From: a virus
Lineage: Duplodnaviria > Caudoviricetes
Strand: one strand, 5' to 3'
DNA length: 64,000 nucleotides
Virus record (IMG/VR): IMGVR_UViG_3300046786_000293
Span: 32,001-96,000 of that record
In this document: positions 5,495 to 32,416 of the stretch, piece after piece
Position numbering within the stretch: the first letter of the stretch is position 1
Layout: every line of letters starts with the position of its first letter
The notes under the pieces: model-generated
Seen by the model: the letters and a program-made list of their open reading frames with translations, nothing else
Databases searched by the model: none
Told to the model about the DNA's origin: nothing
Program-made: the position numbers and the translations under genes

Positions 5495-6703
5495 ATGAAA
5501 AAACGCAACTATACTGTCGACGACGTTCGTCGGCTCCAAGGTAGTGTTCAGATCGAACATACATTAGCAAAGCGTGGCGCCGCAAAGCTTCGCACATTGC
5601 TAGCTACAGAACCTTATATAAACACCTTAGGTGCCTATAACGGTCAGATGGCGGTACAACATGCTAAAGCCGGATTAAAAGCAATTTACCTAAGCGGATG
5701 GCAAGTAGCTGGCGCAAATAACACAGCTAATCAAACATACCCCGATCAGTCATTATATCCAGTTGACTCAGTACCACGTGTGGTGAAAGGCATTAACAAT
5801 GCTTTCCGTCGTGCTGACCAAATCGAAACATTAGAAGGCAGTGTTACTACAGATTATTTTCTTCCTATTGTTGCTGATGCAGAAGCAGGATTCGGCGGTG
5901 CATTAAACGCATACGAATTAATGGCTGCAATGATTGAAGCAGGTGCTGCTGGTGTTCACTTTGAAGATCAACTAGCCAGTGAAAAGAAATGTGGTCATTT
6001 AGGTGGTAAGGTTCTCGTACCAACAAGTCAGATGATTCGTACACTTAACGCCGCACGTTTAGCCGCAGATGTTGCTGGTGTAGACACAGTTATCATGGCA
6101 CGTACAGACGCAGAAAGTGCCACATTAATCACTAGCGATCATGACCCACTAGATAAGGATTTTATTATTAATGAGCGTACTGAAGAAGGCTTTTATAAAT
6201 TTAAAAATGGTATCGATGCTTGTATTAGCAGAGGTCTTGCTTATGCCCCTTACGCTGATCTCTTATGGTTCGAAACTAGTACGCCTGATATCGCACAGGC
6301 TAAGAAGTTTGCTGATGCCATCCACGCTAAGTATCCTGACCAAATGCTTGCTTATAACTGTAGTCCTAGTTTTAATTGGCGCAAGTTTTTAAGCGAAGAT
6401 GAATGCGAAACATTTCAGCGTGAACTGGGTGAATTAGGTTACAAGTTCCAATTCATTACTCTTGCTGGTTTCCACTCTGTGAACCTTGCTACCTTTGAAT
6501 TAGCCGAAGCCTATAAGGATCGTGGTATGGCTGGCTATAGTGAAATGCAACAACGTGAGTTTGCTGCACAGGAGCGCGGATTTACTACCGTTAAACACCA
6601 ACGTGAAGTTGGCGTTAGCTACTTTGATGCAATTAGCACAGCAGTAGGTGCTACTTCTACTGTTGCTAATAAAACATCAACAGAAGCGGATCAATTTCAT
6701 TAA
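5495..6703 (+). CDS. aceA: Isocitrate lyase
   Basis: [37 protein letters not shown] catalytic loop, [21 protein letters not shown]. Confidence 0.97.
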
Positions 6704-12971: not shown

Positions 12972-14083
12972 TAACTATCTGTAAAAATTCCAATAGTATC
13001 TTCAAAAAGTGTTCCGTTATGTTTCCACTTTGCGGGTAACAGTTTATCCAATTGATTCATACCATTTTGCCAATTCCTTACATGAGCGCTGTTTTCGTCT
13101 TTAAAGAAAAATTTATCCCAAGGTTGGACTACACTCCTGTCAGCTTTGGCTGGACTAAAGAACATTGGCAATGTTCTATTATATACGATATTGCCTATAA
13201 AGTCATGTTTTGTTCTACCAGTTAGATTATTCAAAATGCTAGGATTTATTCCACGCTCTTTAAGATAGCTTTTGATAACATGCCCTTGTTTTATTAACAT
13301 CAATCCTGTAGACTCTGCCCAGTAAAACGGCTCCACATACAAAGGATTCTGGCTTCCGGTTCCACGAAATGGAACTACCAAATTAATAAATTTATCCAAA
13401 AATTTTAGATAGAACTGTCCATTTCTGTAATCGACTATTGGCTTATCCACACCAATTAAATGGGCAACTGTTTTGCCCATGTCTGTAATTCTTCTAAATT
13501 CGGTATTCACTAAATCAAAATCTGCACGCCAAGCAATACCTGGAGTGAAGCTATTTAAAGGGTTACTGTCGAAGTTAAACCAGTCTGGATTATTTTTAAA
13601 ATAGTTTATTGTGTAATCGCATGTATCAACTACTGTAATTTTTAAATCAGGCAAGTACGTATTTTTAACATATTCTGCTAAAGGATATGATTGAAAAAAG
13701 ACTTCTGCATAGTTATTTTCAGGTCGGTTATTTGCAATAGACTTATCAACGACGCCAATAGGTCCCCTGATAAAAATTTCATCCAATTTAATATTGTTTC
13801 GAATGAATGTTTCAAGGATGTTAGTGCTGTCTGCACCCCCGCTAAAGTGCAAGACTAAGTAGTCATATCGGTTTCTAAGTTCCCAGGCCCGAGCTGAATA
13901 TAACTGATCTAAAGTTTGTGTTGGCTCGAGTTCCCAATTTAATTTTTTATAAATGTCGTCATATAAAACAAACTTCACCGGCTGTTGTTTACGTTCCGAT
14001 TCTAGTATAGCTTTTATTTTACTTAAATACTTCTCATGGCCTACTTCATAGTGACCGTAATAAGTCCCATCGTAAGATAACAT
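12956..14083 (-). CDS. PP-loop (adenine nucleotide alpha-hydrolase) protein of unknown function
   Basis: LHFSGGADSTNIL (SGGxDS) motif. Confidence 0.6.
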   Translation of the reverse strand: MLSYDGTYYGHYEVGHEKYLSKIKAILESERKQQPVKFVLYDDIYKKLNWELEPTQTLDQLYSARAWELRNRYDYLVLHFSGGADSTNILETFIRNNIKLDEIFIRGPIGVVDKSIANNRPENNYAEVFFQSYPLAEYVKNTYLPDLKITVVDTCDYTINYFKNNPDWFNFDSNPLNSFTPGIAWRADFDLVNTEFRRITDMGKTVAHLIGVDKPIVDYRNGQFYLKFLDKFINLVVPFRGTGSQNPLYVEPFYWAESTGLMLIKQGHVIKSYLKERGINPSILNNLTGRTKHDFIGNIVYNRTLPMFFSPAKADRSVVQPWDKFFFKDENSAHVRNWQNGMNQLDKLLPAKWKHNGTLFEDTIGIFTDSYCLGK

Positions 14084-15012
14084 TAATTAGTAACTTTCTC
14101 AAGACCTAAGCGACGCCTCATATCTTCGAATCTATTGTATTGGAAATCTAAGAACTTTTGACTATCGGCAGGTGGTTTAATAATTTCATATTCTAATAGT
14201 TTAAGACTAGAAATCAGATTATTATCTTTAAACGCTGTTTGAGATAAGGAAAACACCCGAGTATCAACTTGATGTCCTTTGACTGCGGATATACCAAACC
14301 AGTAATAAAAATCGAAATCTTCAATGGTTTGTTTTATTATTGGCAACTGCGAAAACTCCTGATGTTTACCTTGACTTGCAATGGCAATAATTTTAATTTT
14401 ATTATCTCTATGAGAATTAGCTAACGTAGACAATGGATCTATTGCACAATCTATACTGCCGCCTATTAGGTTCGCCGTAACATCGCTTGCACCTTTAAAA
14501 GGAATTATTTCAGTCTGACTCAAGCCTAAATGTTTAACTATAAACCTGCCAGCAAACGCTGAGCCAGAATTGCTTACTCCACAATTTAATTTTCTCTTTT
14601 TAGATTGTTCTAAAAATTCATTCCATGATGTAATACCGCTCTGATTACTAACGGCTACTACTAATGGAGTTCTAGCCAACGGCACTACCATATCAAATTG
14701 AGAATAATCGTAGCCATTATTTGAATATAGGACTTTATTAAACAATACAGGACCCGTGGCTGCAATCATGAATGTATTAGAGTCTAACGGCTTATTTAGA
14801 ATATAGGCAACACCTATTTTACCGTCTGCTCCAGGTTTATTTACGATAACCGAGGGAACATTAGAGTTAATTAAGTATTTTTGAAAATTGCGAGCAAACG
14901 TATCTACTGCACCACCTGGAGGATACGGCACAACTAATTCAACTGGTTGAGTTGCATGAGCTATGCTAAAAAATATAAAAAACGCAAAAATAAATTTTGA
15001 TAAATGTTTCAC
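14083..15012 (-). CDS. Bug/TctC tripartite tricarboxylate transporter substrate-binding protein
   Basis: Signal peptide; VPYPPGGAVDTFAR, VNKPGADGKIG, IPFKGASDVTANLIGG, YWFGI. Confidence 0.88.
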   Translation of the reverse strand: MKHLSKFIFAFFIFFSIAHATQPVELVVPYPPGGAVDTFARNFQKYLINSNVPSVIVNKPGADGKIGVAYILNKPLDSNTFMIAATGPVLFNKVLYSNNGYDYSQFDMVVPLARTPLVVAVSNQSGITSWNEFLEQSKKRKLNCGVSNSGSAFAGRFIVKHLGLSQTEIIPFKGASDVTANLIGGSIDCAIDPLSTLANSHRDNKIKIIAIASQGKHQEFSQLPIIKQTIEDFDFYYWFGISAVKGHQVDTRVFSLSQTAFKDNNLISSLKLLEYEIIKPPADSQKFLDFQYNRFEDMRRRLGLEKVTN

Positions 15013-15342: not shown

Positions 15343-15361
15343 AGGGGGAAGTTATCCCCCT
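15343..15361 (-). terminator. Putative intrinsic terminator after hsp20
   Basis: 7-bp stem AGGGGGA/TCCCCCT; U-tract is weak. Confidence 0.45.
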
Positions 15362-15371
15362 GTTTATTATA

Positions 15372-15815
15372 TTACTTCTTGTAAGTAATAGCAATCTTCT
15401 TTGGCTTTTCTTCCTCGGGAATTACTAATTCCAAAGCGACTGCGAGAATACCGTTTTGAACGGTTGCTCCACGTACTTCTACGTTGTCTGCTAACGGGAA
15501 AGTGCGAGTAAAGTTTCGAGCACTGATGCCCTTGTGTAGATATTCTACTTTTGGCGCATCTTCTGCTTTGACTTTTTCACCTTTAACAGTTAGCAAGTTG
15601 TCCTTTAATTCTACATCGATTTCGTCTTCAGCAAAGCCAGCCACAGCTACTTCAATAATGAAATGTGTATCGTCCAATTGGGCGATATTGTGTGGGGGAT
15701 AGTTGTCTTTGCTATTAGCAAAAGTACGATTTAGTTCCTCAAACATACGGTCAAAGCCAATGGCATGACGATGTAGTGCAGGTAAATCAAAGGTACGAAG
15801 TGTGAATTGTGTCAT
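15372..15815 (-). CDS. Small heat shock protein (IbpA/Hsp20)
   Basis: IGFDRMF, NYPPHNI, IEVAVAGF, YLHKGISARNFTRTFPLA, GATVQNGIL. Start at 15815 with SD AAGGAG. Confidence 0.95.
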   Translation of the reverse strand: MTQFTLRTFDLPALHRHAIGFDRMFEELNRTFANSKDNYPPHNIAQLDDTHFIIEVAVAGFAEDEIDVELKDNLLTVKGEKVKAEDAPKVEYLHKGISARNFTRTFPLADNVEVRGATVQNGILAVALELVIPEEEKPKKIAITYKK

Positions 15816-15877
15816 TTTATTTCTCCTTATAAAGCAAGTTATGACATTTAAATGTAGACCCCACCCGGGCATCTACA
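15810..15877 (-). promoter_or_regulatory. ROSE-like RNA thermometer in hsp20 5' UTR
   Basis: 5' hairpin UGUAGAUGCCC..GGGGUCUACA; 3' hairpin CUUGCUU-UAU-AAGGAG with the bulged-G UUGCU opposite the SD, plus UGUCAU pairing with AUGACA (start codon). Confidence 0.7.
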
Positions 15878-15881
15878 CAAA

Positions 15882-15887
15882 TATTTA
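15882..15887 (-). promoter_or_regulatory. Late promoter core TAAATA for hsp20
   Basis: Lies directly 5' of the structured leader. Confidence 0.65.
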
Positions 15888-15898
15888 TTATATAGAAA

Positions 15899-16159
15899 TC
15901 AATCTTGTTTGTCAATTGAGTTGGGCGTAGACATTGGTTCAACGAAATACCATCGTCTTTGGCTTTCAAAAGTTAACGCAAAAAAATTGTAAGTTTCTGC
16001 AGATTCTAAGATAACCCTAAGAGTATATTTTACAATTTTTATTTTGTACGGGAGTTGGTACTTATTACTCCAGTCAAACAGTTGCTTTTTTATTTCGTAA
16101 GCCGCATGTTGTGCTCCTAATCCTCCGGCACCTGTGGGCAATACGAACTCGATGTACAT
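15899..16159 (-). CDS. Hypothetical protein
   Basis: 86-aa ORF coupled to the bS21 stop. Confidence 0.6.
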   Translation of the reverse strand: MYIEFVLPTGAGGLGAQHAAYEIKKQLFDWSNKYQLPYKIKIVKYTLRVILESAETYNFFALTFESQRRWYFVEPMSTPNSIDKQD

Positions 16160-16371
16160 TAGTACAACTTCTTGGGCAACGCCTGATCTGCTAGTCGCTT
16201 ACGCCAACGATTTCGTGCCGCAGAGGCTGCTTTTTTACGTGTTGTGGTGGGTTTTTCGTAAAATTCTTTGTCACGAAGATTCTGAAGTAAGCCGCTTTCG
16301 GCAACTTTTTTCTTGAATTTACGTAGAGCACGATCTACGTTGTCATCTTTAACAAATATTTTACAAGCCAT
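16159..16371 (-). CDS. rpsU: Ribosomal protein bS21
   Basis: ALRKFKKK..ESGLL..LRDKEFYEKPT..RK...ARNRWRKR...LPKKLY. Confidence 0.95.
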   Translation of the reverse strand: MACKIFVKDDNVDRALRKFKKKVAESGLLQNLRDKEFYEKPTTTRKKAASAARNRWRKRLADQALPKKLY

Positions 16372-29083: not shown

Positions 29084-31429
29084 TTAAAGTTTACACGATT
29101 CACAATCTTCAACATCATCATAGTCGTCAATGATAGGTGTTTTGATTGTATCCCACATCTTTTGTTCTTCAGTTCTGTTGTCTTGTGATTTGGAACCTTG
29201 CTTGTTGATTAGACTATAATAGAAAGTCTTAATACCCCACATCTGTGCCTGCATTAAATTCTTGGCAATCAATGTAGTGGGTACTTTACGACCTTCAAAA
29301 TGTGCAGGATTGTAGAAAGTATTTGTAGATATACTTTGATCAATGTAGGCCTGTAACACTGCGGCCGTTTTTAGATAACCAACGCAATCAGTTTGATCCC
29401 ACATTAATTGATATTTGTTCTTTAACTTTTGATATTCGGGCACAACTTGAGTAAAACTTCCTGCCTTACTTTCTTTTGTGCTGATTAAACTCATTGGCAT
29501 TTCTATACCGTTGGTGCTGTTAATTACTACGCTCGAGCTTTCAACTGGTGCAACTGCCATAAGGGTAGCGTTGCGAACACCATGCGTTTGCATTTTGACT
29601 CGTAGACCTTCCCAGTCCAGTTCTGGAGCAAAGGATGTGAGTTCATCCACTCCTTTAGATCTGCGTTCCCAAGGAAACACACCTCTACCATACCATGTAC
29701 GGTCACTATCCTTACAGCGACCGCGTTCGGCGGCAAGTTCCACAGTCGCTTCAGTAAGATAGTACGCTTGATGTTCCATCCAGGATTTAACTTCTGCCAA
29801 AGCGTCTGAATTGCCGTATTGGAGTCCACGTTTGGCATGCCAGTAAGCAAGGTTTGTAACACCGATACCCAAGGGTTGAATTTCATCGTTGGATAGTTTG
29901 CTTTGGATCGAAAGGAAGTCTTGGTAGTCAAGGATATTACATAAGGATCTCTGAAGAATGCGACAAGCACGGCGCATATCCTCAGGATTGCGGAACGCTC
30001 CCCAATTAATGGAGCCCAGTGTACAAAGTGCGATGCGACCTTGATCGTCGTCCAGGCGTTTGAAAGGTTTTGTGGGAAGTAGAATTTCACAGCAAAGGTT
30101 ACTCTGGTAGATAGTGTGATACTCAGGATCAAATGGTCCTTGATTCATCACGTTGTCAATAAACACTAGATAAATGCGACCAGTGTCTGTTCGCTCCTTA
30201 AGTATTCCAGATTTGAATACTTCCTCGGCACTCATTACTTTCTTGCGTAGGTCAGTGCGTTTTTCACACTTAACATATAGTTCTTCGAACAACGCTGTAT
30301 TAGAGTAGAAGGCTTCGTATAGGTCTGGTACTTCATTAGGGTCAAAGAAGGTAATATTCTCTTTATTCCTGAAGCGTCTCCAAAAGAATGCAGAAAGCAC
30401 AACACCGTAATCCATGTGTCGTACTCGGGTTTCGTCTGTACCTTGATTGTTCTTGAGCACAATGAGATCATCGAATTGATGATGCCATATGGGATAGAAA
30501 ACCGTAGCACTAGCATTGCGAATACCTCCTTGTGAACAACTACGCAAGTCACCAAACCACTTCTTCAAAAATGGAATCATACCAGTATGCATGATCTCGC
30601 CGCCTCGAATGGGTGATCCCAAAGGACGTAGACGTCCGATCTCTAAGCCAATGCCAGCACGTTTACTGGCATACTTGGCCATCATTTCGCCGCTAGCGAA
30701 TATACTATCCAAATCATCATCACTCCTAATAAGAACGCAACTAGAAAATTGTTTCGTCGGAGTGCCAAGGCCAGCAAGGACAGGAGTAGCAAGAGTAAAA
30801 AGACCATCACTAGCAGCATTATAATATTCCTTAATGTAACGCATACGAGCCGAATTAGGCTCTTCATTGTGGAAAACAGTAGCAGCCGCAATCATATAAC
30901 GTATCTGCGGCGTTTCATAAATTTCTTTAGTAGCACGATTGCGAACTAGATACTTTTCAATAAGTTGTTCAATTGCGGCATAACTGTAGTGCTCGTCTTT
31001 GGTATGATCGAGCAAGTCATTCATTCGATTCCAATCTTCTTGGCTATACCATTCAAGTAATTCCGGAGTATATAAACCAACAGCTACATTCTTTTTTACA
31101 ATATCATAAATGTGTGGAACATCATATGATCCGTAAACGTCTTTTCGCAACATTGATAGACGTTGTTTACCTGCTACATATTGATAATTAATATTACCAA
31201 CATCGGGATTAGATTCTACGTCAATGAGATCGACACAGGCTCTTAGTGTAATTTCGTCGATTTCTTTTGTAGTGATACCATCATAGAAATGTGGTTGCGC
31301 TTTAATTTCAATCATCGATTGACTAACATCTGCAATGCCACCGCATATTTTTGTTATTTGCGCTTGCCACTTCTCGATTGTCAACGGTTCTTTTTTTCCG
31401 GATCTTTTTGTAACTTGAATTATTGTCAT
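29084..31429 (-). CDS. nrdA: Ribonucleotide reductase class Ia alpha subunit with ATP-cone
   Basis: VTKRSG ATP-cone, TPVLAG, QFSSC, SNLCCEI, CTLGSIN, APVESSS, KTFYY, C-terminal CESCKL; uninterrupted. Confidence 0.97.
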   Translation of the reverse strand: MTIIQVTKRSGKKEPLTIEKWQAQITKICGGIADVSQSMIEIKAQPHFYDGITTKEIDEITLRACVDLIDVESNPDVGNINYQYVAGKQRLSMLRKDVYGSYDVPHIYDIVKKNVAVGLYTPELLEWYSQEDWNRMNDLLDHTKDEHYSYAAIEQLIEKYLVRNRATKEIYETPQIRYMIAAATVFHNEEPNSARMRYIKEYYNAASDGLFTLATPVLAGLGTPTKQFSSCVLIRSDDDLDSIFASGEMMAKYASKRAGIGLEIGRLRPLGSPIRGGEIMHTGMIPFLKKWFGDLRSCSQGGIRNASATVFYPIWHHQFDDLIVLKNNQGTDETRVRHMDYGVVLSAFFWRRFRNKENITFFDPNEVPDLYEAFYSNTALFEELYVKCEKRTDLRKKVMSAEEVFKSGILKERTDTGRIYLVFIDNVMNQGPFDPEYHTIYQSNLCCEILLPTKPFKRLDDDQGRIALCTLGSINWGAFRNPEDMRRACRILQRSLCNILDYQDFLSIQSKLSNDEIQPLGIGVTNLAYWHAKRGLQYGNSDALAEVKSWMEHQAYYLTEATVELAAERGRCKDSDRTWYGRGVFPWERRSKGVDELTSFAPELDWEGLRVKMQTHGVRNATLMAVAPVESSSVVINSTNGIEMPMSLISTKESKAGSFTQVVPEYQKLKNKYQLMWDQTDCVGYLKTAAVLQAYIDQSISTNTFYNPAHFEGRKVPTTLIAKNLMQAQMWGIKTFYYSLINKQGSKSQDNRTEEQKMWDTIKTPIIDDYDDVEDCESCKL

Positions 31430-31909: not shown

Positions 31910-32416
31910 TTAAAAAGTTAAAGTGCTAAAATTATATTTAATATTAGCATTGGCACCTGTATTAGTTGCGACATACCCTATTTGTGTAAAGGTTGCACTA
32001 ATATTAGATGCTTGAGTAAAAGTTAAAGTTACACCTATATTAGCTGTTTCTGTATAGGTATCATTAAATGATACAGTTGATGTGTTTTGTGCAATTAGAA
32101 TAGTTCCTTGTCTGTAATCACTTGCTCTTTGAATAGCATAGTTCATTGTAATACAAGGATTTAATGTTGAAAAAACTAAACCAGAAATATTTCCTGTAGT
32201 ATTGTCAGTTAATACAGCGGAGTTTGAGTATGGAAGATCATTTTCGGTCAAAACTCTAGTATTACCAACTTCGGGCGCACCTTCATCTAAGGTACCATTA
32301 CCGATAAACAATTCTTGAGTATCAACACTCCAGCCAAACTCTGCGCTAGATAATTGAGGTAGGTCTTCTGCTAGTCCCCTACGATTTTTAATTTGACTAA
32401 TTTGAACTATGGCCAT
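31910..32416 (-). CDS. Virion fibre-associated protein with Mtd/hyaluronidase-like N-terminus
   Basis: QIKNRRG...LPQLSSAEFGWSVDTQELFIGNG. Confidence 0.6.
   Translation of the reverse strand: MAIVQISQIKNRRGLAEDLPQLSSAEFGWSVDTQELFIGNGTLDEGAPEVGNTRVLTENDLPYSNSAVLTDNTTGNISGLVFSTLNPCITMNYAIQRASDYRQGTILIAQNTSTVSFNDTYTETANIGVTLTFTQASNISATFTQIGYVATNTGANANIKYNFSTLTF

Follow-up and report, generated by a model that had tools for sequence, protein, structure and literature searches.

A ROSE-like leader with a start-codon helix ahead of the hsp20 gene of a giant freshwater phage

The hsp20 locus, its leader and its promoter

The window (the whole stretch of 64,000 nucleotides analysed here, positions 32,001 to 96,000 of IMG/VR record IMGVR_UViG_3300046786_000293) is part of a 338.5-kb phage record that is 97% complete and comes from a giant freshwater phage. 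Positions 15372–15815 of its minus strand encode a 147-aa Hsp20 of the IbpA type, which matches PF00011 (E 1e-18), is also assigned to phrog_432 and shares about 48–50% identity with enterobacterial IbpA. It keeps the equivalents of IbpA Y34, R93 and R97 and has Thr at position 98. The gene is flanked by rpS21 (16159–16371, minus strand) and an 86-aa ORF on one side and by clpS on the other; phage rpS21 is known to have Hsp20 and Clp genes near it (PMC9723584). A G/C-rich hairpin (15343–15361) lies immediately past the hsp20 stop codon and overlaps a second sigma-70-like promoter (15394–15366) located ahead of clpS. Host-type genes in the window include rpS21, a TctC receptor gene (14083–15012, minus strand) and a gene at 5495–6703 (plus strand), which, judging by eye, we take to encode an isocitrate-lyase-like protein. 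The identity of the latter to Burkholderiales (59–66%) and to Alphaproteobacteria (62–69%) proved uninformative for host assignment, and the homologues of rpS21 came without taxonomy. A Polynucleobacter metagenome bin contains short contigs of phage-like character that carry three IbpA-type hsp20 genes and a phasin-like gene, either through an artefact of binning or as a pointer to the host; among 150 other genomes sampled from the same order, only 6 encode an IbpA-type small heat shock protein.

The minus-strand leader of hsp20 folds into a 5′ hairpin (hairpin I), followed by a second domain in which both the Shine–Dalgarno sequence (SD) and the AUG are paired. Hairpin I, at 15852–15878, has 8 bp, a bulged G (G15870), 3 bp and a 4-nt loop, the bulge lying between a U·G and a C-G pair; minimum free energy folding thus recovers the stable 5′ hairpin that the preliminary description had proposed. 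In the second domain, the ROSE anti-SD motif CUUGCUU (15832–15838) pairs with the SD AAGGAG (15823–15828), which is conserved in the alignment of relatives, and leaves G15835 bulged (hairpin II). Around it, UGUCAU (15841–15846) and AUGACA (15810–15815, the start codon and codon 2) form the 5′ and 3′ arms of an outer start-codon helix. ViennaRNA favours a slightly different register, CUUU with GGAG, that covers the SD likewise. ROSE-like elements comprise two to four hairpins, and the features that define them are found here: two hairpins with a stable 5′ one, a U(U/C)GCU motif that pairs with the SD within the 3′ hairpin and leaves its G unpaired, and a position in the 5′ UTR of an IbpA-type gene, the transcript start being taken from promoter motifs. 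A metatranscriptome contig identical to 15486–15865 spans the anti-SD arm, SD and AUG, which is weak evidence of transcription because it is strandless and may derive from DNA; the RNA runs examined consist of contigs that carry neither strand, start nor expression level.

Upstream of the leader lies a sigma-70 promoter that matches the consensus at 12 of 12 positions, with a −35 TTGACA (15910–15915, minus strand) inside the last codons of the 86-aa ORF, a 17-nt spacer and a −10 TATAAT (15887–15892). Overlapping the −10 hexamer is a T4-type late box, TAAATA (15882–15887), invariant in an alignment whose rows were selected and anchored on it. The −35 hexamer is present at 5/6 positions or better in 20 of 49 relatives (mean of 2 and maximum of 6 in shuffles), and a strict sigma-32 pattern in none of the 49. 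Across the whole genome, 93 of 373 ORFs have TAAATA upstream, compared with 51 in shuffled sequence and 21 in the antisense direction, and presumably these 93 include the capsid, portal and sheath genes, which were recognised by eye. Given this enrichment and a gp55 homologue encoded in the phage genome (E 5e-10), TAAATA is a late motif of the phage. The late-promoter transcription originally suggested is therefore correct as far as the box goes and incomplete in overlooking the perfect, conserved sigma-70 promoter. Because the two overlap and no sigma-32 site was found, hsp20 is probably transcribed early as well as late, and not upon heat induction. Sigma-32-like sites are visible ahead of several bacterial ibpA leaders, and the P. 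putida ibpA leader has a proven sigma-32 promoter (PMC3669281). Elsewhere in the genome, a GC-rich multi-hairpin stretch (G000:C1:299780-299860, minus strand) was observed immediately past another TAAATA box.

We infer that the sigma-70 and late promoters would both start just 5′ of hairpin I, and therefore early and late mRNAs should contain the entire leader. This bears on a timing device of the kind known from T4 genes e and soc, in which the ribosome-binding site is masked in early transcripts and freed by a late promoter within the hairpin. Between rpS21 and hsp20, the minus strand showed no terminator-like site, which makes long early transcripts formed by read-through likely, and a late box is present. 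However, the TAAATA box precedes the anti-SD arm by about 45 nt and stands ahead of hairpin I in every relative aligned, which means that no pairing arm is lost from late transcripts; nor is there a conserved second late box within the leader. On the position of the box we reject late unmasking, and we regard such a device as extremely improbable.

Conservation, classification and predicted stability

The window's leader was aligned with 47 distinct leaders drawn from 80 related viral loci. Over these 48 phage leaders, 95% of cells were paired, a level that none of 500 shuffles reached, and slid controls were 44–52% paired. Ten pairs were altered on both sides, and in hairpin I this applied to 8 of the 11 pairs, covariation counts that are inflated by relatedness. 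Hairpin II was paired in 99.6% of cells, and two rows, related to each other, show a double change from UU/AA to AA/UU. The pairing of CUUGCUU with the SD around a bulged G, and the covariation sought in related phage hsp20 leaders, are thus borne out. The folding energy of the leader did not exceed that of shuffled sequences (z −1.35), and its ROSE character therefore rests on comparison.

As a test independent of the protein, viral contigs were scanned for the bare motif CTTGCTT-N-AGGAGA-N-ATG. Among the matches listed, 110 were usable, and the gene behind the motif was hsp20 in 90, dnaK in 5, a second gene family (described below) in 2, groES in 1 and unrelated in 12. A covariance model built from the phage leaders detected the hsp20 leaders of the cultured phages Melnitz (55 bits), Mosig (39), HTVC115P (27) and C48C1 (27), those of S-PM2, P-SSM4 and Atu_ph07 at about 24, 23 and 23 bits, and the leader of P. 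aeruginosa ibpA (22 bits). Two contigs (L252 and L322) that also carry hsp20 have a second ROSE-like motif, with CUCGCU opposite AGGAG and an upstream GCC hairpin, ahead of a rubredoxin-like ORF of 47–49 aa, for which the model scores only 17–19 bits.

No Rfam model matched anywhere in the window at gathering level. At a relaxed threshold, ROSE_3 (RF02523) aligned over its full length (model 1–69 at 15810–15878; E 0.014) with 23.2 bits, 20 bits short of the gathering threshold of 43. The Rfam scan proposed for this leader thus gave the alignment and failed the cut-off; together with the conservation in relatives, the alignment upholds the ROSE-like architecture with SD masking. The resemblance is closest to the Pseudomonas ibpA ROSE element (ROSE_3, PMC3669281), which likewise has a leader of about 62–66 nt with two hairpins, an IbpA-type gene behind it, a GAUGCC..GGGUC core in hairpin I and U(U/C)GCU opposite the SD. 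Unlike that element, the leader described here is phage-encoded, A/U-rich, driven by a sigma-70 plus gp55-type promoter instead of sigma-32, and present on a non-sHsp gene as well; its AUG is paired in an extra helix, whereas the Pseudomonas AUG is unpaired (PMC3669281). The upper pairs of its SD/anti-SD core are U-A, so that the G-C clamp of the short Pseudomonas ROSE is missing. Since the leader scores below the Rfam threshold, lacks the G-C clamp and a sigma-32 promoter, and has a temperature function that is predicted only, it is, judged by these comparisons, ROSE-like and not a member of ROSE_3.

In P. putida, the upper G-C clamp is required for repression (PMC3669281), and since it is missing here, the outer helix may replace it. 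At 25 and 37 °C, respectively, the predicted energies are −0.8 and +0.7 kcal/mol for the ROSE hairpin alone, −4.7 and −3.0 for the outer start-codon helix, and −5.1 and −2.1 for both together, so the start-codon helix supplies most of the predicted stability of the SD/AUG domain; the P. aeruginosa hairpin II region is predicted at −11.1 kcal/mol (25 °C). Opening the ribosome footprint at 25 °C would cost 8.3 kcal/mol, compared with 7.7 for the validated P. aeruginosa leader, falling to about 4 with either helix broken and rising to 10.9 with the bulged G deleted. About 35% of the genome's ORF starts, which were crudely called, have a predicted occlusion as high or higher, and predicted opening of the leader varies smoothly with temperature. 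These figures, from nearest-neighbour energies that leave out the non-canonical ROSE pairs, speak to plausibility and not to function.

The start-codon helix and the second gene family

The pairing of UGUCAU with AUGACA, which had been put forward as hiding the start codon, is present in this leader and in 37 of 38 close relatives, with a mean of 5.5 Watson–Crick pairs versus 3.9 when the arm is shuffled; 6 pairs are reached by 6.7% of the genome's ORFs. As a general ROSE feature it did not hold: among the matches listed, only 7 of 90 viral hsp20 leaders have the outer helix and 83 lack it. Given these two counts, the helix is, on comparison of sequences, a clade feature. Over the 48 hsp20 leaders it is 87.6% paired with no double change, and among the matches listed, 64 of the 65 hsp20 leaders bearing GUCAU start with AUGAC and one with AUGGC, largely within one clade. 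We also tried, and rejected, start-codon pairing as general to viral hsp20 (90 leaders) or to dnaK leaders: cognate duplex energies were no better than permuted ones in either set of matches listed.

A second copy of the leader lies in the phage genome at G000 29389–29465 (34 bits, E 4e-4), with its anti-SD shifted (UUGUCU). The gene behind it (G000:C1:29155-29465, minus strand), 2.5 kb outside the window, encodes a phasin-like protein of 80 aa that is entirely helical and belongs to a large family in phages, with 435 homologues. An imperfect palindrome, ATGTTGCA-G-TGCCACAT, lies just 5′ of the TATAAT of this gene (minus strand, L087:1990-1968, G000 about 29489–29467) and is conserved in relatives. 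Searches gave no firm support for a phasin identity: there is no Pfam or PHROG match above noise for the product, Phasin_2 matches 4 of 26 family members (best E 0.008), Atlas assigns the protein with 0.88 to a cluster with 13% Phasin_2, and a fold comparison gave no significant match. Among 150 sampled Burkholderiales genomes, no homologue was detected except on a short contig in the bin that holds the phage contigs.

In this second family, the 5′ arm tracks the start region, as in GUAAAC/GUUUAC, UUAAAC/GUUUAA and AAUCAUA/UAUGAUU. Cognate arms and starts score 6.15 versus 5.32 ± 0.12 when permuted (0 of 200 permutations reaching the observed value), reflecting perhaps 3–4 independent changes. 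This apparent covariation is independent support for the start-codon helix, of a kind that the hsp20 family does not show. The closest members of the family have a complete two-hairpin ROSE leader with a covarying hairpin I; more distant ones have kept the start-codon helix and lost the ROSE motif. In one subfamily of the phasin-like gene (L185–L209), CA repeats (ACACACAC) replace the ROSE motif before AGGAG and the covarying start-codon helix is kept.

The bulged-G module and control of the leader

Hairpin I repeats the local motif of hairpin II: a Y-G pair (mostly U·G), a bulged G and then a C-G pair. Across the 48 rows its bulged G and C never vary, while the surrounding stem covaries. Among the matches listed, the hairpin I module is present in 81 of 90 viral hsp20 leaders (mean of 1.0 and maximum of 3 in shuffles), in 4 of 5 dnaK leaders and in none of the 12 unrelated matches. 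It also occurs in 13 of 14 bacterial ibpA leaders, where about 4 would be expected; in the Salmonella ibpA leader, both upstream stems have it. The Pseudomonas hairpin I does not melt, and its role has been called not fully understood (PMC3669281). Because melting does not explain the conserved bulged-G module, the pattern of conservation suggests that the bulge in this stable hairpin is a candidate binding site for a protein, which may be Hsp20. In E. coli, IbpA attaches to the 5′ UTR of its own mRNA and represses it via R93, with all three stem-loops being important (PMC10474464; bioRxiv 2020.04.20.050740). The E. coli and Salmonella ibpA leader (ROSE_2) also has an SD hairpin with a bulged G, the upstream stem-loops of Salmonella being bulged too, and Y34, R93 and R97 are retained in the phage protein; unlike there, the phage leader has two stem-loops instead of three and no ROSE_2 match, its Hsp20 has Thr in place of K98, and binding is putative. 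By analogy with E. coli, a contribution of chaperone binding to control of the leader is possible, although we would not count on it.

Carried further, this analogy would make the leader mainly a protein operator: oligomers of phage Hsp20 or host IbpA would occupy both bulged-G hairpins and keep translation repressed until titrated by unfolded or aggregating proteins during infection, temperature being secondary. The E. coli precedent is joined here by the residues of close relatives (Y34 in 39/39, R93 in 39/39, R97 in 38/39), by the invariance of the bulged G in a hairpin that in Pseudomonas does not melt, and by the predicted weakness of the SD hairpin alone; sharing of the leader by dnaK, groES and the second gene family is as expected of a one-repressor regulon. 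Self-repression by IbpA requires an aromatic residue at 34, Arg93 and positive charge at 97 and 98, and Lys93 is inactive in E. coli (PMC10474464), whereas the phage protein has Thr at 98 and a marine group with Lys at 93 (10/10) has kept the leader. Moreover, Pseudomonas hairpin II alone regulates by temperature (PMC3669281). We consider a predominantly protein-based switch unlikely. Less likely still is a fixed damper, in which hairpin I would shield the mRNA at its 5′ end and hairpin II would merely slow translation of a protein harmful in excess, without regulated switching at the temperatures of a lake. Transcripts can be stabilised by a 5′ stem (PMC3669281), the promoter is strong and looks constitutive, and the smooth opening predicted above would fit; but such a damper needs neither an invariant bulged G in both hairpins nor the exact U(U/C)GCU motif, and among the matches listed the leader is nearly restricted to chaperone genes.

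The reading that we favour, with reservations, is that the leader acts as a translational gate of the ROSE type: the mRNA would be made without heat induction, warming would open the gate, and Hsp20 may help to keep it closed. That the leader structure is conserved and repressing we regard as very probable; measurable temperature gating appears likely. A short two-hairpin ROSE-type leader would have been acquired together with the IbpA-type gene and retained in phages. Host sigma-70 and phage gp55 late promoters, whose motifs are in place, would together start transcripts immediately ahead of hairpin I, and these would probably be made through most of infection without heat-shock induction. 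Comparison and folding show hairpin II hiding the SD via the U(U/C)GCU motif and, in this clade, the added outer helix hiding the AUG too, where it may take the place of the Pseudomonas G-C clamps. Because the domain is predicted to be marginally stable (about −5 kcal/mol at 25 °C and −2 at 37 °C), warming would open it gradually and allow Hsp20 translation, probably at a set point lower than in Pseudomonas; two-hairpin ROSE elements gave 3- to 8-fold heat induction in reporters (PMC3669281). With less assurance, the bulged-G module would let an IbpA-type chaperone hold the leader shut until titrated by unfolded protein, as at E. coli ibpA.

A wider proposal, which we put forward tentatively and hold to be somewhat unlikely, is that the bulged-G module, in every ROSE hairpin including the non-melting one, is a recognition site for IbpA-type proteins, and that phages would thereby run their own translational proteostasis regulon (hsp20, dnaK, groES and the small helical protein) from constitutive promoters, independently of sigma-32, with a set point tuned by the start-codon helix. 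In the present phage genome (record 97% complete), dnaK and groES were not found, so it lacks these two members of such a regulon.

Among other known systems, the phage lambda cIII thermometer (PMC4166951), the phage thermometer treated in that work, likewise makes translation depend on temperature through the structure of a phage mRNA, as the hsp20 leader putatively does; unlike it, cIII has an unrelated fold with two alternative conformations, represses at high temperature and has no ROSE motif. ROSE motifs outside sHsp genes are shared with the ROSE-like and ROSE-G elements on ABC transporter genes (PMC11342760, PMC12857270), but those elements are bacterial, and the phage motif is the classic UUGCU instead of CUGCU with a double bulge; the ROSE-G paper of this pair mentions neither phage nor virus. 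A literature search, with thin coverage of subscription journals, found no relevant paper on ROSE elements or hsp20 thermometers in phages or cyanophages. The type of element is known.

ROSE elements have been described as bacterial and, on the ibpA genes considered, as driven by sigma-32. A ROSE-like leader is the usual leader of phage hsp20, including in cultured cyanophages and in SAR11 and OM43 phages. Since no sigma-32 site was found, stress control, if any, must be translational, and phage leaders are clean, minimal test cases for it. The repeated bulged-G module offers a concrete hypothesis for the role of the 5′ hairpins of ROSE elements and for the mRNA target of IbpA, and A/U-rich variants with a low set point could serve as thermometers in cool conditions.
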